From Escherichia phage FEC14, in the sequence record MG383452: DNA of 64,000 bases. The stretch is one strand, 5' to 3'. Below are positions 1 to 17,898 of this stretch, in pieces (position 1 is the stretch's first letter; the number at the start of each line of letters is the position of its first letter). The notes below the pieces were generated by a model. It ran no database searches, had not been told where the DNA came from, and saw nothing but the letters and a program-made list of their open reading frames with translations. Made by a program: the position numbers and the translations under genes.

Positions 1-2742
1 ATGAAAATGCGCAAGTCCGAGCATTTCGTGCGCTCTTCTTCTACCATCGTCGGACAGACATTCAATGTCAAGATGACGGATAAATTATTTGAAACATTAT
101 TTTCAAGTCTCTACAAATATAAAGAGGCGGCGTCTTTGCGTGAGACGTTGTGTAATGGTATAGACTCACATAATATGCGTGATCGCCAACAACGCTGGAT
201 GCCATCGCATTATGCTCCTCTCACTCCTATGCCTCAACGATACAGCAAACATCTTGCCCCCAAGGGAACTCCTGTTGTTGTACATTTACCGGATGTTATG
301 GAACCCTGGCTGGAAATTAAAGATTATGGGGTTGGTCTTCCATTAGAAATGATCATCGGCGAGCCTATTACAGCGCGTGAAGATGAAGTGCTGGTTGAAG
401 GTAATATCGTCGTGAAGGAAGACGAAATCCCTGATAGCACTGCTGTTATTGGTACACCTGGTTATTATAATGGGGTACTGGTATTCCGCGCTGAGGATGG
501 CGAGATCATTCGTGGTCCTGGTTTGTATACAACACTCTTCCATAGTACAAAAGAGGACGACGACGGGCAAATAGGGGCGTTTGGGCTAGGTTCTAAATCC
601 CCATTTGCGGTATCTGATTCATTTACAGTAGAAAGTCGCTATGAAGGGAAACTGTATCGCTTCCTGATGTATCTGAATGCGGACAGAATCCCAACTGTAG
701 ATCTCATTACCAAGGATTTAGATACCCGTGATCCTAAACCGGAAGACACTGATGAGTTCAACGGCCTGACTGTTAAAGTTCCTGTAAAGAATCAGCGTTT
801 TACCGCCTTTGAACAAGAGTTGGTCCGTTTGGGTCGAGTGATGCGACCTTCAATGCGACCGAAGGTTGAAAACGCCAGTTATTCTTTCCGTTGGTCTGAC
901 ATCAACTTCGAAAACCGTGTAGGCAACACATATATCCAACCGAAGTTAGATTCCGACAACATCCACTATGCTGTCATGGGCGGGGTTTCTTACCCGATAG
1001 ATCTCGACCAATTGGACTCTGAAATATGCACCGTGCTGGAAAAATTCCCGAGTTCCTATACCTTCTTCGAACTTGGAGAATTGAATGTTCCTCCATCACG
1101 TGAAGACTTGTCATATGACGAGTTCACCCGTGAAAGCCTGAACCGCGTGTTCAAGCATGTGGCTGACAATATTATGCAGGCGAAGATGTATGAACTTCGC
1201 CAGGCCGAATCTATGGGTCCTCTTATGTTGTATATGAAAAAGACTCAGCTGACTGATATGTTCGGTAGTGGTTTCCGTAAATTGGTCGAACGGGAATTTC
1301 CTGCAGATAACCGTTTCTACAAAGGCACGTTCCGTTATATCGGAGCGCCGGACGTCGTGCGCGATTACTCTTTGGATGCACCTTTCCGGTCTATTGGTAG
1401 TCCTTACGAAATTGAAGTACACGACAACGGTGTAGTACACGACAGCATTTATGTGAACTCTGTCGGAAATTGGTTGAAATCTAAATCAAAAATTGCTGTT
1501 ATTATTGATAACTCGAATCGTGCTCGAAACCTGAAGATACAAACAGCACGCAATAACTTCAATGTCGTTATCGTCGTCAAACCGAATGAAAATTATTTCA
1601 GTAATCGGAATCAGCTGGCGGCACATAAAGAATCATTTACCAACCATGAGGAATTGAAGTCTTATTTTGAATCATGGATCGGTGTACAAGAAACAACGCC
1701 GGACTACCTGGTCTTTGCCGATAAACTGATCGAGGTCTTTGGCGATTTATTCAATCCGGATGAAGTCTATTTCATGCATGAAATGGAATATGTTCGCCCG
1801 ACCGTTGAAAAAGATCCTGGGATGTTTAGTTTCCATTACAATTCATTTAACTTCGACCGCGTTTATGAATTAGATGGAAAAACCGTTTCAGATATTATTG
1901 ATTCGGGCAAAAAGATCGTATATATCGAAGTATCTGGCCGAGAAGGTATCCATAAAATTCATGGTAATACCTTACGACAATCCGCGGCTGGACATTTGCG
2001 TGAAGCGATGGAAAGAACGAAGTTCGGCGAGAATGGAAACGAAAACCTGTTTGATTTGCTGGGAGCACATCCAACAATCGTTCTTGCGCGTCGTAAATCT
2101 GTTCCAATGATGAAGAAATTCCCAGAAGTATTCATCCCCATTGACGCAGTGTTTGATATGTTGCTTGAGCATTATAAAGATGAATTTCAAGCACTTGAAT
2201 CCAAGAAACTTCTGACACTTCGAAAGGGCATAAACATCATGTCTCATCGCATTGATTATGGTGCCAAGCTGTTGATTGATTCCCATGGAAAAGTTACGGA
2301 TGGCTATGCCCATCATCAGCACAGGGTAAAAGCAATCATCAGTTATGCGAAACAACAAATCACTGAAGAAGAATGGAAGATTGTTCGTATGCTGGCCAAA
2401 CGAAATCCGTCTGGATCGGGGTACGGTTATTTCCGCAAGGCTGTTGAGGAATTACATTATCGTATAGAAATGCCTTTCTCAACTACGAGATTTTTCCGCG
2501 CCTGTAACCAGTTAACTCAAGTTGTTGATTTATTGAATGAAAAATTAACTGCTGAAGGATTTGATGAGATAAAGGTCACTAGCACTATATCTCAAAAGCA
2601 AAAGGCCAAAAACCGATACCGAGTTGAATGTCATCGTTTGGTGAAATTCATGATGTCAACATATCAGCCTTCGGCACACAACGCGATTGAAGATGCCACT
2701 AGATTTGTGAAGGCTATTTCAAAACGTATTCTCGGGGCATAA
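1..2742 (+). CDS. rIIA: rIIA-like protein with N-terminal GHKL (Hsp90/GyrB-type) ATPase domain
   Basis: 913-aa ORF. Bergerat-fold motifs visible: N-box 'RETLCNGIDSH', G1 'KDYGVGLP', G2 'IGAFGLGSKSPF'. Followed by a second large ORF and located upstream of the topo II genes, as rIIA/rIIB are in T4. ORF starts at window base 1, so the true 5' end may lie upstream. Confidence 0.5.
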   Translation: MKMRKSEHFVRSSSTIVGQTFNVKMTDKLFETLFSSLYKYKEAASLRETLCNGIDSHNMRDRQQRWMPSHYAPLTPMPQRYSKHLAPKGTPVVVHLPDVMEPWLEIKDYGVGLPLEMIIGEPITAREDEVLVEGNIVVKEDEIPDSTAVIGTPGYYNGVLVFRAEDGEIIRGPGLYTTLFHSTKEDDDGQIGAFGLGSKSPFAVSDSFTVESRYEGKLYRFLMYLNADRIPTVDLITKDLDTRDPKPEDTDEFNGLTVKVPVKNQRFTAFEQELVRLGRVMRPSMRPKVENASYSFRWSDINFENRVGNTYIQPKLDSDNIHYAVMGGVSYPIDLDQLDSEICTVLEKFPSSYTFFELGELNVPPSREDLSYDEFTRESLNRVFKHVADNIMQAKMYELRQAESMGPLMLYMKKTQLTDMFGSGFRKLVEREFPADNRFYKGTFRYIGAPDVVRDYSLDAPFRSIGSPYEIEVHDNGVVHDSIYVNSVGNWLKSKSKIAVIIDNSNRARNLKIQTARNNFNVVIVVKPNENYFSNRNQLAAHKESFTNHEELKSYFESWIGVQETTPDYLVFADKLIEVFGDLFNPDEVYFMHEMEYVRPTVEKDPGMFSFHYNSFNFDRVYELDGKTVSDIIDSGKKIVYIEVSGREGIHKIHGNTLRQSAAGHLREAMERTKFGENGNENLFDLLGAHPTIVLARRKSVPMMKKFPEVFIPIDAVFDMLLEHYKDEFQALESKKLLTLRKGINIMSHRIDYGAKLLIDSHGKVTDGYAHHQHRVKAIISYAKQQITEEEWKIVRMLAKRNPSGSGYGYFRKAVEELHYRIEMPFSTTRFFRACNQLTQVVDLLNEKLTAEGFDEIKVTSTISQKQKAKNRYRVECHRLVKFMMSTYQPSAHNAIEDATRFVKAISKRILGA

Positions 2743-2774
2743 TAGCCCCATTACCCCACAGTGAGAACTACAAG

Positions 2775-4358
2775 ATGAATGCTATAGAAAAACGTATTCT
2801 CAAGCTGTTGAATGAGAACAGAAGTCAAAGTTCAATAGCCAGTGAATTGGGCGTACCGCGCTCAATGATACAACGCGTGTCGGATAAAGAACTGGGAGTG
2901 GATCCGGCTTCGATTAAGTCTCTGACCACTGAACAGATTCAAGAAATACAAACCAAGAGCAGCAAAGGTGAAAGCAATTCTTCTCTGGCATCAGTTTATG
3001 GCGTCAGTGCCAAAACAATTGCCCGCGCCCTGATGGTTCGTATCATCAAAGAATCTAATAACGTGGTCGTGATTTCGCCAATTAAAGAATTGACTGAAGA
3101 AGGGAAAATCCCCGACACCTATGAAGTTCTGGAAGGTTCGGTGTCTGTCGATTCTGAAGGCGAAGAATGGTATGTTGGCCGTTTCCTGGAAAACCAAACA
3201 GTGTTTATCTGTATGCGTTACGATAGCTCTGCTGCTATTCAGGCCAAACTTTTCAGAAGCGAAGAACTGAAACCGTTAGAAACTCGGTCAAGCCGCTTCA
3301 ATGAAGAAAATATTTCTCCGTTGGTCGAATTGGCGACAGCACTGGTTGATGGCGTTACCAAAGTCAATGACGGCGTGGTAATCAGTGTACAACATGACGG
3401 CGAAACATACCCGATGCGCGGTTCCCTTGATGCCCGTCGGCGTGTGGGATACTTTGACGCAATTCTGGGGCGTACACTTCGACTGGCGTTGTCGTCTGTT
3501 GTTTTCTCGGTTAAGACAACGGCTGTTGAGGAAGAGTCTGGCGACAAACAAACTCAAAACTCATTTAAAGAAAAAGATCTGTCAGTGTTCTTGAATGAGC
3601 ACCAGATCATGATTTTACCGGAAAGCATCGTTATCGTTATGGATGGCAAACCGGAAACGATAACCACAAGCCATCAGGCGTATGACCGTATTGTTGAAGC
3701 GATTAAAAATCGTGACGTCAAAACAGCGTACACTCTGATGAAACCGCGTGAAGCCATCAAACAATTCACCACAGGCATGGTTGACCTTTCAGACAATCGT
3801 GTTCGCTGGGGTGGCTATGATATCACCGGAACTTCCGTTGCCAAACGCATTTTGGCTTTGGCATTAAAAGGCGATTATCCAAACTTAGAACGCTTGGGTC
3901 GTTTTCTGGACAAAATGTTCCAAAACCCGAGCGCCGCGCTGGTTCAGTCCGGTCGAATCTATGAATTCATGGCATATTCGGATATCGAAATTCATGAAGA
4001 CGGTGATATCATCCTGTATAAATCCGTTCGCGGTAACTACATGGACAAGCGCACAGGAAAAGTTAGTAATGCTCCTGGCACCATTGTTCGAATGGCTCGC
4101 TCATTCGTGAACGATAACAACAAAGACCTGTGCTCCTATGGTCTTCACGTTTGTTCTCTGGCGTATCTGAAACAATGTTTCGGTAGCCTGGGCCAGCGGG
4201 TTGTGCGTTGTAAGCTGAACCCGAAAGACATCGTGTCTATCACTGATGATTACGGTTCTAGTAAAATCCGCTGCTGTGAATATCTCGTGTTGGATGACTA
4301 TACTACGGAATACAACCGCCAACATAAATCTATTGATGTTGACGGTCTATACAAGTAA
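2775..4358 (+). CDS. rIIB-like partner protein with N-terminal helix-turn-helix-like repeats
   Basis: 527-aa ORF immediately after the rIIA-like gene. N-terminus has two HTH-like segments ('SIASELGVPRSMIQRV', 'LASVYGVSAKTIARAL'). Assignment is by position only. Confidence 0.35.
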   Translation: MNAIEKRILKLLNENRSQSSIASELGVPRSMIQRVSDKELGVDPASIKSLTTEQIQEIQTKSSKGESNSSLASVYGVSAKTIARALMVRIIKESNNVVVISPIKELTEEGKIPDTYEVLEGSVSVDSEGEEWYVGRFLENQTVFICMRYDSSAAIQAKLFRSEELKPLETRSSRFNEENISPLVELATALVDGVTKVNDGVVISVQHDGETYPMRGSLDARRRVGYFDAILGRTLRLALSSVVFSVKTTAVEEESGDKQTQNSFKEKDLSVFLNEHQIMILPESIVIVMDGKPETITTSHQAYDRIVEAIKNRDVKTAYTLMKPREAIKQFTTGMVDLSDNRVRWGGYDITGTSVAKRILALALKGDYPNLERLGRFLDKMFQNPSAALVQSGRIYEFMAYSDIEIHEDGDIILYKSVRGNYMDKRTGKVSNAPGTIVRMARSFVNDNNKDLCSYGLHVCSLAYLKQCFGSLGQRVVRCKLNPKDIVSITDDYGSSKIRCCEYLVLDDYTTEYNRQHKSIDVDGLYK

Positions 4359-4411: not shown

Positions 4412-4711
4412 ATGGAAACCAGAGATGTTTACTTCGTGTATGAGCAACAGGCATTTGGATCACTGCGCCGAAAAACAAAGTTCCTTGTTGATTCATTCCA
4501 ATTTGAGGGTGAACTCAGAGAATACTCGTTCAGGAATTTTCCTCCTAGAGAAGTCATAGGCGACCAGTTCGTGAAATTATTTTGTCGTTGTGGCGGCTGT
4601 GATTTTAACGACGACGGATATTCCATGCATGTTTATTGCTGCAATTGTTGTGGTAAATATATTACAGTCTATAGGAGAACTGATCATGGCGAAGACACAA
4701 AAGAAAATTGA
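4412..4711 (+). CDS. small cysteine-rich protein
   Basis: 99-aa ORF with GAGG Shine-Dalgarno before the ATG; C-terminal 'CRCGGCDF...CCNCCGKY' cysteine cluster. Overlaps the next ORF start. Confidence 0.4.
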   Translation: METRDVYFVYEQQAFGSLRRKTKFLVDSFQFEGELREYSFRNFPPREVIGDQFVKLFCRCGGCDFNDDGYSMHVYCCNCCGKYITVYRRTDHGEDTKEN

Positions 4712-5099
4712 AAACACCCAAACCATTCAAGAAATCACTGCACAGGAAGAAAATAAACTTCCCAGTTATCTGCAACGCGTGGTGGATAACGTGCCTCAGG
4801 GCGGCGACGGCGGTATTGTCTACGCTGGTGACTACGGTTGGGTGTGTGAATACAAAGACGGCTCTAAGGAGCTTCTAGAGGAACTCACCGGACTTGCCGG
4901 AACTTTGCGCCGTTATGGGTTAGATAAATTCGGTAAGCCGATGAAACCAGGTACTGTGGTATCAACCGATATTACAGTTGAAGTTCTTCTTTTGCTCGAT
5001 ATCAATGATCTTAAAACACTTGCGGAACCCCTGGGTATCGACGCGACTGACCGTAATGAAATAATCTCGCAATTGACTGAAAAACTGCAGATTAAATAA
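4686..5099 (+). CDS. hypothetical protein
   Basis: ORF with 'taggag' SD 8 nt before the internal ATG (MAKTQKK...); the upstream extension in the ORF track lacks an SD. Confidence 0.5.
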   Translation: MAKTQKKIENTQTIQEITAQEENKLPSYLQRVVDNVPQGGDGGIVYAGDYGWVCEYKDGSKELLEELTGLAGTLRRYGLDKFGKPMKPGTVVSTDITVEVLLLLDINDLKTLAEPLGIDATDRNEIISQLTEKLQIK

Positions 5100-5131: not shown

Positions 5132-5524
5132 ATGGCTATCGTTGACGAAAGCAATTTGATGGAGTACGCTCTAAGACATTATATCACCCCTGGTGTCTCA
5201 AGAGATGATTTGATGGTAGACATTCAGCGAATTTCGCTAATTAATCAATCATTGAAAAGATTTGTGCCAGGGAAAAGTCCTCGCGTACTTATCAATCAAT
5301 TGATTATCCTTTTCAATACCTTTGAAACCGAAGCCGTGTGTCGAATGTTGGTGTTGAAAACGGATAAGAACCAACATCCTCGTCTTAAAGCAGCGCTGTT
5401 GACGTTAGGTGTTTGGCGAGATGATTTATGTTCCGGTTCATACGAACCAGATAACGAGCTGATGATGGCTCTGAACAACGATTTGGATGAGTGGAGGAAA
5501 CCATGCCAACAATCACAGTATTAG
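5132..5524 (+). CDS. hypothetical protein
   Basis: 130-aa ORF, same-strand gene packing. Confidence 0.5.
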   Translation: MAIVDESNLMEYALRHYITPGVSRDDLMVDIQRISLINQSLKRFVPGKSPRVLINQLIILFNTFETEAVCRMLVLKTDKNQHPRLKAALLTLGVWRDDLCSGSYEPDNELMMALNNDLDEWRKPCQQSQY

Positions 5525-6312
5525 TCGCGCCGGAAGTTGTCCGCAACAAACCGGAAACCGAACGCAATCATGTCGTGACGGGTGTTGCAAAGGGTTGGCA
5601 AAAGACCAGCCTCAACCAAGATCCTGATGAGATCCTGACCGAATGTAAAGGTCTTGACGCTCTGCTCACCAAGAGCAATTTACAAGCGGACGGTGTCACC
5701 AAAGTGGATCCCACCAAGCCTATCGGCTTTCAAGTATCTTATGAAATCCACGATCCGAATGCCATTTTAACCACCGGACTTGTGATTACTCCAGCTACAG
5801 CCAGCGGAGAGATCGGACAATTTGTTGAATTGCTAGCGACGGTATCCCCTGCCAATGCCACATATCAAGGCGTTAATTGGTATTCTGGTGATATTACGAA
5901 AGCTGTACATGTCGGTGGTGGTAAATTCAAATTGCTGGCTTCAGGAACTGTAACGGTTTATGGTGTCACGGTTGAAGGGAATCACACAGATTCTACGGTT
6001 ATTACAGTTGCAGGCGCTCTGTCGCTGTCGACTGATTTACCTGCCACCAAAGACGTAACTTCTGGACAAGACGGAACCTTTAGTGTTGTTGCTGCGGGCG
6101 GTACAACTCCATACACTTATGTGTGGCATTTCTCTGATACTCCTGGGGGTGCGGGGTCAGTTATCGATGCTGGCACTAATGCCACCGCCGCCACTGCTAA
6201 CCTGGTTATCACAGCAGTTGAAGCCGCAAATGAAGGCGAATATTGGTGTGTGGTTTCTGATGCAGATGGCCATTCTGTCACGTCTACTCGTTGTGAAATG
6301 GCTGTGGTGTAA
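5503..6312 (+). CDS. Ig-like domain protein (BIG2-like plus Ig-like domain), possible virion decoration protein
   Basis: GGAGG SD before MPTITVL. Beta-rich segments 'GVNWYSGDITKA...TVTVYGVTVEG' and 'GEYWCVVSDADGHSVTSTRCEMAVV' are typical of Ig-like folds. Confidence 0.55.
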   Translation: MPTITVLVAPEVVRNKPETERNHVVTGVAKGWQKTSLNQDPDEILTECKGLDALLTKSNLQADGVTKVDPTKPIGFQVSYEIHDPNAILTTGLVITPATASGEIGQFVELLATVSPANATYQGVNWYSGDITKAVHVGGGKFKLLASGTVTVYGVTVEGNHTDSTVITVAGALSLSTDLPATKDVTSGQDGTFSVVAAGGTTPYTYVWHFSDTPGGAGSVIDAGTNATAATANLVITAVEAANEGEYWCVVSDADGHSVTSTRCEMAVV

Positions 6313-6315
6313 TTT

Positions 6316-6537
6316 ATGAAGAGCTTCCAGGATTTCCTTGAAGACTCTTCTGCTCCGGCAACCACGACCGCCGATGTGGGGAAACCCGAAGGCGGTATGG
6401 TCAAGGAGCCTGTCAAAAAACCAAAAGATCTTGAAGAAGAGTCTGATTTTAAAAAGATCTTTGGCAACATTTTCAAAGATTTGGATTTATCCAAGGCGCG
6501 AAAATGGAATTTCAGGACAGGCCAATACGACGATTAA
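6316..6537 (+). CDS. small protein with capsid-targeting-sequence-like N-terminus (candidate internal head / prohead core protein)
   Basis: N-terminus 'MKSFQDFLED' resembles the T4 internal-protein CTS 'MKTYQEFIAE'; lysine/glutamate-rich 73-aa product. Confidence 0.45.
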   Translation: MKSFQDFLEDSSAPATTTADVGKPEGGMVKEPVKKPKDLEEESDFKKIFGNIFKDLDLSKARKWNFRTGQYDD

Positions 6538-6560
6538 AGAGGCTTCGGCCTCTTTTTCAT
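6538..6560 (+). terminator. rho-independent terminator
   Basis: 'agaggcttcggcctct' followed by 'ttttcattt'. Confidence 0.6.
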
Positions 6561-8524: not shown

Positions 8525-10438
8525 ATGTCCAACAAAATTGATATTGAACGCAAATACAAAAAGCTCACTCACATAGAGCATATCCTACTTCGCCCAGAGC
8601 GTCATCTGGGCAGTATCCGTTCGTCTGTGGGGACGGTGTGGGTGTATGACCCAACCAAAGACAAAGTCATCTTCCGTGACAACTTTGAGTACTCCCCTGC
8701 GCTGATCAAACAGTTTGATGAAATCATCACCAACTGTGTTGACCACAGCAAGACCCCTGAGGGTAAAGGCTTGACGGAAATCACCGTCACGGTCTCCCCT
8801 ATGAACGGTCAAATCATCGTTTCTGACAACGGGGGTATCCCTGTGGTCAAGCATGGCGTCACCAATGAGTGGCTCCCTGAGATGTTGTTTGGCTCGCTCT
8901 ATGCGGGCAGCAACTTCAACGATGAGGACGAGGAGTACAACAACCAGAAGTCCGGCGGCCAGAACGGTGAAGGGGCTTCGCTCGTCAACGTGTTCTCAAA
9001 GTGGTTCCGCGTTGCTACCAGTGACGGCAAGAAGTCTTATACTCAGCTGTTTGAAGACAACATGAGCAAGAAGTCCAATCCGGTCATCGGCAATACACCG
9101 AAAGAGTTCGGCACCACTATTGCCTGGATCCCTGATTATGCGCGCCTGGGTGTTAAGGGGCTTGACCAGAACAACCTGCTCATGATTTACCGTCGTGCAT
9201 TCGAAGTGGCGGCATGCAACCCGCGCCTGAAGGTTGTTCTCAACGGCAAGCAAATCCGCATTGATCGATTTGGTCATTTCGTTGATTACTTCTACGCTGG
9301 CTCGGCTGTTGATGAAACGGATGATTGGTCTGTTGCTATCACTCCCTCATCTGGTGCGTTCATGCATGCATCATACGTGAACTCAATCGCCACGCACATC
9401 GGTGGACCTCACGTTGATTATGTTGCTGACCAGATCGTGGCGGCTATACGCCCTCAGCTGGTTAAGAAGTTCAAGACCGAACTGAAGCCAGCGATGATCA
9501 AGAACCACATGTCATTGTTCATCGCCGCCGACATCAACAACCCTCGCTTTGACAGCCAGACCAAGGAGCGCATGACGACTCCTGTGAGCCAGTTTGGTAC
9601 GTCCTACAAGCCCAGCGATAAACTGATTCGCAAGGCGCTTGAGTTCGTGACAGCAGGGCTGAGTAAAGAACTGGCTTCATTACGCAATGAACAAGAAGAT
9701 GCCGAATTTGAAAAGGCGAAGAAGGATATCAGCAAACGGGATTATCGTGAGATTGAGAAGTATTATCCGGCGACCGCCAGAGGCGACCGCAGTGGGTGTT
9801 CGCTGCTACTGACAGAAGGTGATAGCGCATCCAACCCTATCCTGAACGCTCGTGATACCAAGAAAATTGGTTTGTTCCCGCTTCGTGGTAAGTTCATCAA
9901 CTGCCTGAACGCCCCGCGCTCAAAGGTGATGGCGAACGAAGAATTCAAGAATTTATGCACCATTCACGGCGGTGCTGTGCCAGGCCAGCCGCTTGATATC
10001 AGTCGCTATCCACAGACCGTCGTGGCAACAGACGCGGATGACGACGGCATTCATATCCGTGGGTTGTTAATAACTCTGTATTGTACGTTCTGGCCTGAAT
10101 ACGTTCGTCAGGGTAGGCTGAAGCTCCTTCGTACTCCATACATGCGCGTGTGGTGTGGTAATATAATGCACGAATTCATGAACAATGCCGAATATGAGGA
10201 GTTCCTGAAGACACCCGACGCCAAGAAGATCACGAAGAAGAAATATCTGAAAGGTCTTGGCGGTAACAGCACTGAAGACTTCAAGCGTATTCTAAACAAC
10301 CTGGATGCGTATACTACGACGGTCACGCTGGACGATGGATACAAGCAGTCACTGAAGAATGGTTTCGGTGATGAGGCTGCTGATTACCGAAAAACCTGGT
10401 TTAGCGATGTTTGCCTATTTGAAACCGAGGATGAATAA
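8525..10438 (+). CDS. DNA topoisomerase II large subunit (GyrB-like ATPase plus Toprim; gp39/gp60-type fusion)
   Basis: 'HIEHILLRPERHLGS' N-terminus, GHKL motifs, Toprim 'LLLTEGDSA'; 637 aa, consistent with T4 gp39 and gp60 fused. Confidence 0.9.
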   Translation: MSNKIDIERKYKKLTHIEHILLRPERHLGSIRSSVGTVWVYDPTKDKVIFRDNFEYSPALIKQFDEIITNCVDHSKTPEGKGLTEITVTVSPMNGQIIVSDNGGIPVVKHGVTNEWLPEMLFGSLYAGSNFNDEDEEYNNQKSGGQNGEGASLVNVFSKWFRVATSDGKKSYTQLFEDNMSKKSNPVIGNTPKEFGTTIAWIPDYARLGVKGLDQNNLLMIYRRAFEVAACNPRLKVVLNGKQIRIDRFGHFVDYFYAGSAVDETDDWSVAITPSSGAFMHASYVNSIATHIGGPHVDYVADQIVAAIRPQLVKKFKTELKPAMIKNHMSLFIAADINNPRFDSQTKERMTTPVSQFGTSYKPSDKLIRKALEFVTAGLSKELASLRNEQEDAEFEKAKKDISKRDYREIEKYYPATARGDRSGCSLLLTEGDSASNPILNARDTKKIGLFPLRGKFINCLNAPRSKVMANEEFKNLCTIHGGAVPGQPLDISRYPQTVVATDADDDGIHIRGLLITLYCTFWPEYVRQGRLKLLRTPYMRVWCGNIMHEFMNNAEYEEFLKTPDAKKITKKKYLKGLGGNSTEDFKRILNNLDAYTTTVTLDDGYKQSLKNGFGDEAADYRKTWFSDVCLFETEDE

Positions 10439-10439
10439 G

Positions 10440-11771
10440 ATGGTTGCTAAAAGTATTACCGTAACAGAATTTATCAACGGGGATCATAAAGAGTTTTCCG
10501 TGGTTAACAGCATCCGTCAAATCCCTCAGCTGATTGACAGCCTGAAGCCAAGCCAGCGCAAGATACTCTTTGCTGCTCTTGAATACAACAAGGAGGAGAT
10601 TGTTGACCGCCTTGGCATGTTCGCCGCCGCTCGCACGAATTACAAATCCGGTGGTGAGAACATGAGCGGTACGATCGTGAACATGGCTCAGGGGTTCCCA
10701 GGTACGAATAACATCCCATACTTTGACCGCGACGGACAGTTTGGTTCAATCATGGGGCGCGAAGCGTCTTCCGCTCGTTATATTTCAGTGGCAGTGTCTG
10801 AAGTTATCCGTAAGATCTTCCGAAAGGAGGACGATGGGATATTGGAATACAATTATCTTGGGGAAGAGAAACTGGAGCCGAAATTCTTTTTACCCATCCT
10901 GCCCATGTTTCTCGTGAATGGTATCAATGGTATCGGCTCGGGTTATGCCACCGACACCCCATGCCACTGCGTTAAGTCCGTGCTCAGTGCCCTGAGAGCA
11001 CTTCTCCGTGGCGAAGACCCGAAGGACTTAAAACCGTACTGGAATGGTTTCAAAGGAGAGACAGGCTATACTGAGGAAGGAAGAGCATACAGTCGTGGTT
11101 TGTTCACCCGCGTTAATGCAACCACTTTGAACATCACCGAGGTTCCTATTGGTTGGTTCTCTAAAACCTATGAGACCAAAGTGCTGTTGCCTCTGTACAA
11201 GGCGGGTGTCCTCACTGAGTACGCCAACGATACGACCGAAGATGGTTGGGATATCACTGTTGTATTCAAGCGGGGTGAATTGTCTAAGTTGAATGACGAA
11301 CAGGTTGAACAGATGTTCCGTCTCTACTCAGCTAATAAGCCCGTGTGGACAGCTTGGGATGAAGATGGTGTTATTCACCGTTACGATGGTTGGAAAGATA
11401 TGTTGCTTCCATTTTTCAATTATCGCCTGAGTCGCTATGAAGATAGACGTCAGTATCTTATCAAGGAATTGACCGACAAAATACACCGTTTGAACAATCG
11501 TGCCATATTCATTGGGTGGGCTGTCGTTACAGATATGCGCCGGAGCCTCACGGAACTGAAAGCGTTATTCCAGACAGACTATCCTGATTTTGATGGCGAT
11601 CTCGATGATTTATTCAAGATGTCTTTATCATCAATTACACTAGATGCCCGTGAACGTTTGTTGAACCAGATAAAGAATTTAGAAGTTCAACGAGAAGAAT
11701 TAAATAATAAGCAAGACATCGATCTTTATACTGAAGATTTAGATGATCTTGAAAAGGCATTGGGCCTATAA
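10440..11771 (+). CDS. DNA topoisomerase II medium subunit (GyrA-like, gp52-type)
   Basis: Immediately follows the large subunit (stop/start overlap; GAGG SD 9 nt before ATG 10440). GyrA-like N-terminal region. Confidence 0.8.
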   Translation: MVAKSITVTEFINGDHKEFSVVNSIRQIPQLIDSLKPSQRKILFAALEYNKEEIVDRLGMFAAARTNYKSGGENMSGTIVNMAQGFPGTNNIPYFDRDGQFGSIMGREASSARYISVAVSEVIRKIFRKEDDGILEYNYLGEEKLEPKFFLPILPMFLVNGINGIGSGYATDTPCHCVKSVLSALRALLRGEDPKDLKPYWNGFKGETGYTEEGRAYSRGLFTRVNATTLNITEVPIGWFSKTYETKVLLPLYKAGVLTEYANDTTEDGWDITVVFKRGELSKLNDEQVEQMFRLYSANKPVWTAWDEDGVIHRYDGWKDMLLPFFNYRLSRYEDRRQYLIKELTDKIHRLNNRAIFIGWAVVTDMRRSLTELKALFQTDYPDFDGDLDDLFKMSLSSITLDARERLLNQIKNLEVQREELNNKQDIDLYTEDLDDLEKALGL

Positions 11772-17222: not shown

Positions 17223-17551
17223 AAATATTCTTTCCTGGTCAGAAAGTACCCGAAGAAATAGAAAAGGTCGAGTTATTTGGTTATAAAAGCGGTGATCCGT
17301 TCCTGCGATTTTCTTCACCATGTATCGTGAAGCGCAATCATGAAGGGTATTATGTGCGCCCAATCATTCTCATGGGTTCTATCATGACGCTGAGAGCCAA
17401 AACAGACTCCGTCGTTATTACCGGAAGTCCTAACATACCCAATGGGAAGACCACGCTCAATGGAAAGCCTATCCTGTCGTCTTGGGCGTTAATTGGATTT
17501 CTGTCTATAATCTTGTTTTATCGTTACCTTACCGACTTGGGGATCTTATGA
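17219..17551 (+). CDS. hypothetical protein
   Basis: 110-aa ORF. Confidence 0.45.
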   Translation: MKIFFPGQKVPEEIEKVELFGYKSGDPFLRFSSPCIVKRNHEGYYVRPIILMGSIMTLRAKTDSVVITGSPNIPNGKTTLNGKPILSSWALIGFLSIILFYRYLTDLGIL

Positions 17552-17898
17552 AAAAGCCACGCATCACAGGACATCAACTCTGCGTCCTTTTAGGAATGTT
17601 GAATTTTGAAAAAGGTGAAGCCAGACGCCTTTGTCATTGGTATTTCAATCCCAAATCTTGGACGAACGATAAAGGGAAAACGGTTTGGACTTTTCATGCG
17701 CCACCGATATCTGGCGGGTTTCGTTCTGTAAAGGGTGATCCATGGGATACGCGTTCAGGTCAATCCTTGTTGTCTAAAGGTCTGATCGAACCTGCGTTTA
17801 CAATGGTTCATGACAACTCTGAAGAGTATAAGCATTGGCCGAAGTCTGAAGTAACATTCTATAGACTTACAGACCTCGGTAAAGCATGTACTGAATAA
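17548..17898 (+). CDS. hypothetical protein
   Basis: ORF; internal ATG (MKKPRITGH...) overlaps the upstream stop. Confidence 0.45.
   Translation: MKKPRITGHQLCVLLGMLNFEKGEARRLCHWYFNPKSWTNDKGKTVWTFHAPPISGGFRSVKGDPWDTRSGQSLLSKGLIEPAFTMVHDNSEEYKHWPKSEVTFYRLTDLGKACTE

Follow-up and report, generated by a model that had tools for sequence, protein, structure and literature searches.

The 64,000-nucleotide (nt) stretch of Escherichia phage FEC14 DNA analysed here (record MG383452, hereafter "the window") begins with two co-directional open reading frames (ORFs) 32 nt apart, ORF1 of 913 amino acids (aa) and ORF2 of 527 aa. Together they are the rIIA-rIIB operon of a Kuttervirus (Vi1-like, Ackermannviridae), orthologous to rIIA and rIIB of phage T4. 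ORF1 matches the PHROG profile phrog_3661 (RIIA) over residues 1-913 with E=0 and the T4-type RIIA profile phrog_612 with E=2e-78; T4 rIIA itself matches the latter with 9e-250. ORF2 matches phrog_3803 (RIIB) with E=0 and the T4-type RIIB profile phrog_609 with 2e-65. When compared by BLASTP, ORF1 aligns with T4 rIIA over residues 15-404 (E 3e-24, 23% identity) and ORF2 with T4 rIIB over residues 285-513 (E 3e-42, 34% identity). A first-pass annotation, made from the sequence without database searches, had named the pair rIIA/rIIB-like, and these matches bear the name out: both families were recovered by their profiles, and no better match to MORC or MutL, the alternatives it had mentioned, was obtained.

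The full 4358 nt are 97.9-98.3% identical to Escherichia phage EP75, Salmonella phages SP1 and PhiSH19, and many others. Matches were found in 232 phage records, 161 of which cover at least 80% of the query, and nearly all of these phages are Ackermannviridae growing on Salmonella, Klebsiella, Escherichia or Dickeya. The remainder of the window is 96-98% identical to the same phages, which makes the window the left end of a Kuttervirus genome in its deposited form. The relatives' records label the two genes RIIA and RIIB, and the proteins are gp1 and gp2 of the Vi01-like Ackermannviridae core genome (PMC10892097). The Kuttervirus pair is thus already known, being annotated in more than 150 deposited genomes. 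The positions of the genes and of the features described below are given in Table 1.

Table 1. Features of the rIIA-rIIB operon, in window coordinates (pLDDT, predicted local distance difference test; HTH, helix-turn-helix).
Feature	Position	Strand	Residues	Basis or remark
rIIA gene, complete	1..2742	+		PHROG profiles; BLASTP to T4 rIIA; 98% nt identity to annotated RIIA (EP75, PhiSH19, others)
rIIA N-terminal GHKL (Bergerat-fold) ATPase domain, Hsp90 type	55..789	+	19-263	
GHKL motif I, ExxxNxxD in LRETLCNGID	136..165	+	46-55	aligned with RELISNASDA of HtpG
rIIA insertion 1 relative to T4 (25 aa)	178..252	+	60-84	window-only alignment block; gap in T4 BLASTP; pLDDT 60-73
GHKL motif II, DxGxG in IKDYGVGL	316..339	+	106-113	D108 and G110 invariant
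rIIA insertion 2 relative to T4 (48 aa), ATP-lid region	367..510	+	123-170	alignment block; 42-residue gap in T4 BLASTP
GHKL G2 box, GxxGxG in GAFGLGSKSPF	574..606	+	192-202	aligned with GQFGVGFYSAF of HtpG and TRAP1
rIIA second domain, equivalent of Hsp90 middle domain / GHKL transducer	790..1215	+	264-405	
Conserved PPSREDLSYD loop	1090..1119	+		R367 and E368 invariant; conservation of S366 and L370 90% or higher
rIIA variable C-terminal half, alpha/beta modules then long helices	1288..2739	+		
rIIA-rIIB spacer, 32 nt, without terminator	2743..2774	+		sequence reading and terminator scan
rIIB gene	2775..4358	+		PHROG profiles; BLASTP to T4 rIIB; RIIB annotation in relatives
rIIB tandem (bipartite) HTH region	2775..3032	+	1-86	
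rIIB beta-rich middle region, absent from T4 rIIB	3036..3524	+	88-250	
rIIB conserved core	3627..4355	+	285-527	CSYGLHVCS motif at 4131-4157

The window starts exactly at the rIIA ATG, and the first-pass annotation had suspected that the N-terminus might be missing. Comparison with related sequences indicates that it is complete and that the genome records simply begin at this ATG. EP75 was deposited with a different start and supplies the upstream sequence, in which an in-frame TGA lies eight codons 5' of the same ATG; the suspicion of truncation was unfounded. The PhiSH19 record begins at the identical ATG (record 1..4358 corresponds to window 1..4358), phrog_3661 is matched from profile position 1 to 917, and the alignment with T4 rIIA begins at window residue 15 and T4 residue 9. 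Upstream of the ATG, EP75 has a 107-nt intergenic region and a hairpin, AAAGCCTCC-GATT-GGAGGCTTT. A promoter scan of the EP75 sequence 5' of rIIA gave no convincing sigma-70 site.

The pair had also been described as expanded. Both proteins are indeed larger than those of T4 (725 aa for rIIA, which is 188 aa shorter than its counterpart here, and 312 aa for rIIB), but they have the normal Ackermannviridae form and lie inside both family size ranges. Full-length Ackermannviridae-type rIIA homologues (P0001-P0043, 33-99% identity) are 908-973 aa long, rIIA lengths across the alignment span 633-1054 aa, and environmental viral contigs also hold stop-to-stop rIIA reading frames of 870-900 codons. 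Lengths of 913 and 527 aa are therefore unexceptional for either family. As judged from the alignments, the extra mass of rIIA consists of the two insertions in the ATPase domain and of insertions scattered over the C-terminal half, where eight more, of 8-30 residues each, occur relative to T4 in a poorly conserved region. The second ATPase-domain insertion is predicted to form small beta hairpins, with strands within residues 129-163 and pLDDT values of 88-94. The extra mass of rIIB is a second HTH and the beta-rich middle region of about 160 aa ahead of the conserved core, neither of which is found in T4 rIIB.

The N-terminal domain of rIIA carries the three GHKL motifs that the first-pass annotation had reported for ORF1, and they line up with those of T4 rIIA in the BLASTP alignment. 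Invariance was scored in a 72-sequence alignment spanning the Ackermannviridae-type and T4-type rIIA homologues, and all key motif residues proved to be invariant. The invariant columns are R47, E48, N52, D55, D108, G110, K184, G192, G195, L196, G197, K199, G327, Y331, G359, R367 and E368. By analogy, E48 would be the catalytic base and N52 the Mg ligand. With its ATP-binding motif residues all intact, rIIA is apparently a catalytically competent Hsp90-type GHKL ATPase. An N-terminal GHKL domain followed by a variable C-terminus has already been published for rIIA (PMC7824862).

A Pfam scan of ORF1 gave no match at E<=1. Homologues whose match to ORF1 is about 1e-20 to 1e-30 score above the gathering cut-offs of HATPase_c_3 and HATPase_c, and T4 rIIA lies just under the HATPase threshold (22.1 versus 25 bits). 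The miss on ORF1 is probably explained by the 48-aa lid insertion, which splits the domain. Because relatives pass the HATPase models and the domain is so interrupted, the miss is not evidence against a GHKL assignment.

The earlier wording "Hsp90/GyrB-type" was right and can be narrowed to Hsp90-like. When the rIIA family profile was run against all PDB sequences, the best 60 matches were all to Hsp90-family proteins, among them TRAP1 (1.7e-9), HtpG (6e-8), Grp94 (9e-6) and many Hsp90 N-domains. The likeness is found by the family profile only; single-sequence phmmer searches of the PDB with each protein gave nothing meaningful. Alignment of the rIIA profile with E. coli HtpG by hhalign placed rIIA residues 19-263 on HtpG residues 7-181 with a probability of 96.8% and an E-value of 2.4e-10. 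MutL, topoisomerase (topo) II/GyrB/ParE, topo VI-B, MORC and SMCHD1 are absent from the best 60 PDB profile matches. MutL and MORC, tried as better matches for rIIA, both score below the Hsp90-type proteins, which thus appear to be its closest GHKL relatives outside the rII family. The GHKL domain of the window's own topo II aligned with the rIIA profile at the right motifs yet not significantly (E 0.12).

The similarity to the Hsp90 family (HtpG, TRAP1, GRP94, Hsp90), the best match to rIIA in both sequence profile and structure, covers residues ~19-400. The two share the signature LY-x-KE-x-x-x-RE-L-x-N-x-x-D, the DxGxG motif, the GxFGxG box and, more tentatively, a second domain with an SRE-x-L loop. 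The aligned lengths show that the ATPase domain of rIIA is followed by a further one, which corresponds to the middle domain of Hsp90 or the GHKL transducer. In the middle domain the likeness is structural and at the level of motifs only, and beyond the N-domain no sequence match to Hsp90 was found. The invariant R367 and E368 sit in the second-domain loop LNVPPSREDLSYD. In the best local hhalign alignment of rIIA residues 264-432 with HtpG, this loop falls on LNVSREILQ, the catalytic loop containing HtpG R336, but the match is weak (E 0.011, probability 4%). R367 is accordingly a candidate counterpart of the arginine in the Hsp90 catalytic loop, a lead suggested by the alignment and not a result. 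The PSRE-L loop, like all the GHKL motifs, is aligned in T4 rIIA (NP_049616), which is homologous over window residues 15-404.

The C-terminal half of rIIA has no detectable sequence similarity to T4 rIIA, is unrelated to Hsp90 and gives unspecific helical matches only. The Hsp90 C-terminal dimerisation domain was not detected, so rIIA is Hsp90-like and not an Hsp90 orthologue. It differs from Hsp90 also in its two lineage-specific insertions and in its predicted DNA-binding partner. Both proteins (~105 kDa for rIIA and ~59 kDa for rIIB) are predicted to be soluble; no transmembrane segment was found in either, the maximum 19-residue hydropathy being 0.92 and 1.33, respectively.

The partner, rIIB, has two HTH units at its N-terminus, detected in Pfam as HTH_38 (6e-8) and CENP-B_N (4.5e-5), in agreement with the HTH that had been noted earlier in the 527-aa protein. 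T4 rIIB (NP_049889) likewise has an N-terminal HTH, with Pfam matches to HTH_7 and HTH_28, and its core is 34% identical to that of the window protein over ~230 aa, including the CS-GLHVCS motif. The predicted model of rIIB has a pLDDT of 83.5. An exhaustive HMMER search found the core in 7231 cluster representatives (50% identity) at E<=1e-3, making it a widespread domain without any solved structure. Among the best 150 matches it is N- or C-terminal in proteins 209-659 aa long; Pfam was uninformative for those with long extensions. All rIIB homologues (P0121-P0166) in a large protein database carry the tag PF26926, which is also listed for a cluster representative 98% identical to ORF2. In the core of phage RB43 the GLHVCS of the window and T4 is GLHVAA, with Ala at the second Cys of the GLHVC motif. 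A possible zinc site in the core, C453/H458/C460/C501, was dropped because RB43 has this Ala in place of C460.

The HTH nature of rIIB has been published by Iyer and colleagues (PMC7824862), who proposed that rIIB is a transcription factor tuning phage expression to host physiology and rIIA its ATP-dependent regulator. The two N-terminal HTH units agree with this, as does the HTH that relatives carry on one side or the other of the core. However, it is the core, and not the HTH, that is the most conserved part of rIIB. Many of the best 150 core proteins start the core at residues ~11-20, which leaves no room for an N-terminal HTH, and only one of the eight such short-N-terminus proteins scanned had a Pfam HTH (P0306, at the C-terminus). 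A target promoter is hypothetical, and we consider a primary role in transcription to be quite improbable.

The order of the two genes is strict. Among 80 viral contigs with an rIIB core, a same-strand rIIA N-domain (E<=1e-25) was found upstream in 69 of the 69 that have at least ~1.7 kb of upstream sequence; each of the 11 contigs without an rIIA match has less than 1.2 kb. In RB43 the two proteins are naturally fused. The 1049-aa product (YP_238977, UniProt Q56C47; NC_007023, 1-3150, minus strand) has both modules in the window order in a single polypeptide and lacks the lid insertion. Its residues 1-291 match the window rIIA (2e-29) and residues 817-1048 the window rIIB (7e-37). This fusion accounts for the length of phrog_609, 1055 positions, and for the match of that profile to both ORF1 and ORF2. 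The strict order and the natural fusion argue that rIIA and rIIB act together physically. The 1054-aa protein of Vibrio phage Kuja (P0049) was considered as a second fusion and rejected, as it has no rIIB similarity.

In T4, as in the window, rIIA lies directly upstream of rIIB and the pair is oriented in the same way towards the topo II genes; the RB43 fusion gene adjoins the topo II genes 52 and 60plus39. The first-pass annotation had placed the pair next to the topo II genes. The neighbourhood is the same, but only loosely: the large subunit (8525-10438; DNA_gyraseB, Toprim and TOPRIM_C) is ~4.2 kb downstream of rIIB, with eight small genes between, compared with one in T4. The T4 order (rIIB, rIIA, rIIA.1, gene 60, ... 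gene 39) is thus loosely conserved.

Taken together with what is known of the T-even phages, these features lead us to favour, as somewhat probable and by analogy, a counter-defence function in which an ATP-gated rIIA clamp and a DNA-tethering rIIB mask or remodel an infection signal read by Rex-type abortive-infection systems. In such a mechanism rIIA and rIIB would work as a single complex. The rIIA N-terminal domains would close or dimerise on ATP binding, as in other GHKL clamps, R367 in the conserved SRE loop would complete the active site, and rIIB would tether the complex to DNA. Early in infection the complex would then mask or remodel an infection-specific signal, probably a phage DNA-protein or replication/recombination intermediate, that is sensed by prophage-encoded RexAB-type systems, and would so keep the infected cell from depolarising its membrane and dying prematurely. 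Neither protein matched the PADLOC defence models (at best E ~0.003-0.007 on stretches of 30-40 residues), and the pair is therefore not counted as a defence system itself.

Several experiments on T-even phages agree with this proposal. Only in the presence of RexAB are insertions in rIIA and rIIB depleted (bioRxiv 10.1101/2025.11.20.689424). T6 rIIB-null mutants that escape a CARD/gasdermin system become sensitive to RexAB, and RIIB alone triggers the CARD/gasdermin system and is toxic in E. coli (PMC10312443). The need for rII on RexAB hosts has been shown for T4, T6 and Bas37-type phages (PMC10312443; bioRxiv 10.1101/2025.11.20.689424). RexA is a DNA-binding protein (PMC11077077).

Other points weigh against a counter-defence clamp on DNA. 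Taken on its own, the SRE loop is only weakly matched to the catalytic loop of Hsp90 (values given above). According to classical reports, the rII proteins of T4 fractionate with the membrane, which would fit a membrane target as well as DNA. The Kuttervirus function would be transferred wholly from T4 and T6, on 23-34% identity over part of each protein, and a countered system in the Salmonella and E. coli hosts of Kuttervirus is presumed. Finally, RexA mutants of very different DNA-binding strength all lose exclusion (PMC11077077), so that any assignment of the Rex trigger is tentative.

The topo II neighbourhood, conserved in T4 and RB43 and more loosely in the window, raises the question of whether the pair is primarily an accessory of DNA metabolism. 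The Hsp90-like clamp and its DNA-binding partner would then organise replication, recombination, topology or DNA-membrane attachment, and counter-defence would be a side effect: loss of the housekeeping role would create an aberrant intermediate that is detected by Rex-type sensors. The architecture of the proteins is compatible with this, since rIIA resembles topo II and MutL in joining a GHKL ATPase to a second domain, and the bipartite HTHs of rIIB are of the kind found in transposases and recombinases. T4 rII mutations also suppress ligase defects. Moreover, rIIA and rIIB are core genes in all Vi01-like phages (PMC10892097). Nevertheless, T4 rIIA and rIIB are dispensable when RexAB is absent (bioRxiv 10.1101/2025.11.20.689424) and T6 rIIB-null mutants are viable (PMC10312443), and a role in DNA transactions is putative. 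A primary role in DNA metabolism therefore seems unlikely to us.

RefSeq and PHROGs label the proteins "RIIA/RIIB lysis inhibitor", and the classical rapid-lysis plaque phenotype gave the rII genes their name. A true lysis inhibitor would act on holin/antiholin timing, but transmembrane and periplasmic segments are absent from both proteins, and their domain content is that of an ATPase and a predicted DNA binder. Of the alternatives considered, this one fits the domains least well. Paddison and colleagues reportedly found in 1998 that rII rapid lysis depends on host prophage genes rather than on the machinery of lysis inhibition itself. The phenotype with experimental support is RexAB sensitivity, and there is very little probability that the proteins inhibit lysis as such. 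The database label is historical; the documented T-even role is counter-defence against RexAB.

A further idea, which goes beyond the counter-defence function and which we regard as doubtful but possible, is that rIIA might be a viral offshoot of the Hsp90 lineage, in which the N-domain and a middle domain with the catalytic-loop arginine were kept and the C-terminus was swapped for a variable rIIB-docking module. If this were true, the rII function, now 70 years old, would be that of an Hsp90-style ATP-gated clamp on a defined client, either a DNA-protein intermediate of the phage or the protein that acts as sensor in a Rex-type system. The Kuttervirus rIIA, with its structured 48-residue lid insertion, would be a variant with different lid gating. 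A search of an incomplete set of open-access papers gave none that links phage rIIA to Hsp90, which does not prove the link to be unpublished.

As a finding, the annotated pair changes nothing, and it is already published that rIIA is a GHKL protein and that rIIB has an HTH (PMC7824862). What is added here is the assignment of rIIA to the Hsp90 type, including a candidate for the catalytic arginine, figures for the synteny, the use of the RB43 fusion as an argument for a complex, and the location of the extra residues. The Hsp90-type likeness and the invariant SRE loop point to E48, D108 and R367 as residues of interest for the unsolved rII mechanism, and the conserved order and the RB43 fusion may be useful to such work as arguments for a physical complex. 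The AF2 models are confident for both rIIA and rIIB, neither of which has a solved structure, and the rIIB core, a very large family without a solved fold, may be of use to rII researchers.

Downstream of the pair, on the plus strand, positions 6536-6555 hold a strong hairpin, AAAGAGGCTTCGGCCTCTTT, with a T-run after it, which resembles an intrinsic terminator. It is the first convincing one downstream of rIIA and appears to close a block of genes from rIIA to ORF7; before position 6536 the plus strand has no terminator-like site except weak stems of 5-7 pairs. Directly 3' of rIIB lies a 99-aa Cys-rich ORF (4412-4711, plus strand; ..CRCGGCDF..YCCNCCGKY..), which overlaps the start of the next gene, has no Pfam match and is annotated as hypothetical in EP75 and PhiSH19. 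The following 137-aa ORF (4686-5099, plus strand) matches DUF7440 (PF24224) strongly (1e-47), and the N-terminus of an Ig-domain "structural" protein (5503-6312, plus strand) matches the same family below threshold (4.7e-4), suggesting a duplicated module.

The two topo II ORFs of the window overlap (8525-10438 and 10359-11771). In EP75 an extra annotated ORF, ORF13.1 (17491-17889), lies between the two topo II genes, and the difference may be an insertion polymorphism. Scans of the whole window for tRNA genes and Rfam families gave no matches. The GC skew is negative between ~26 and 46 kb of the window, a region that coincides with the minus-strand block of replication genes in the PhiSH19 annotation.

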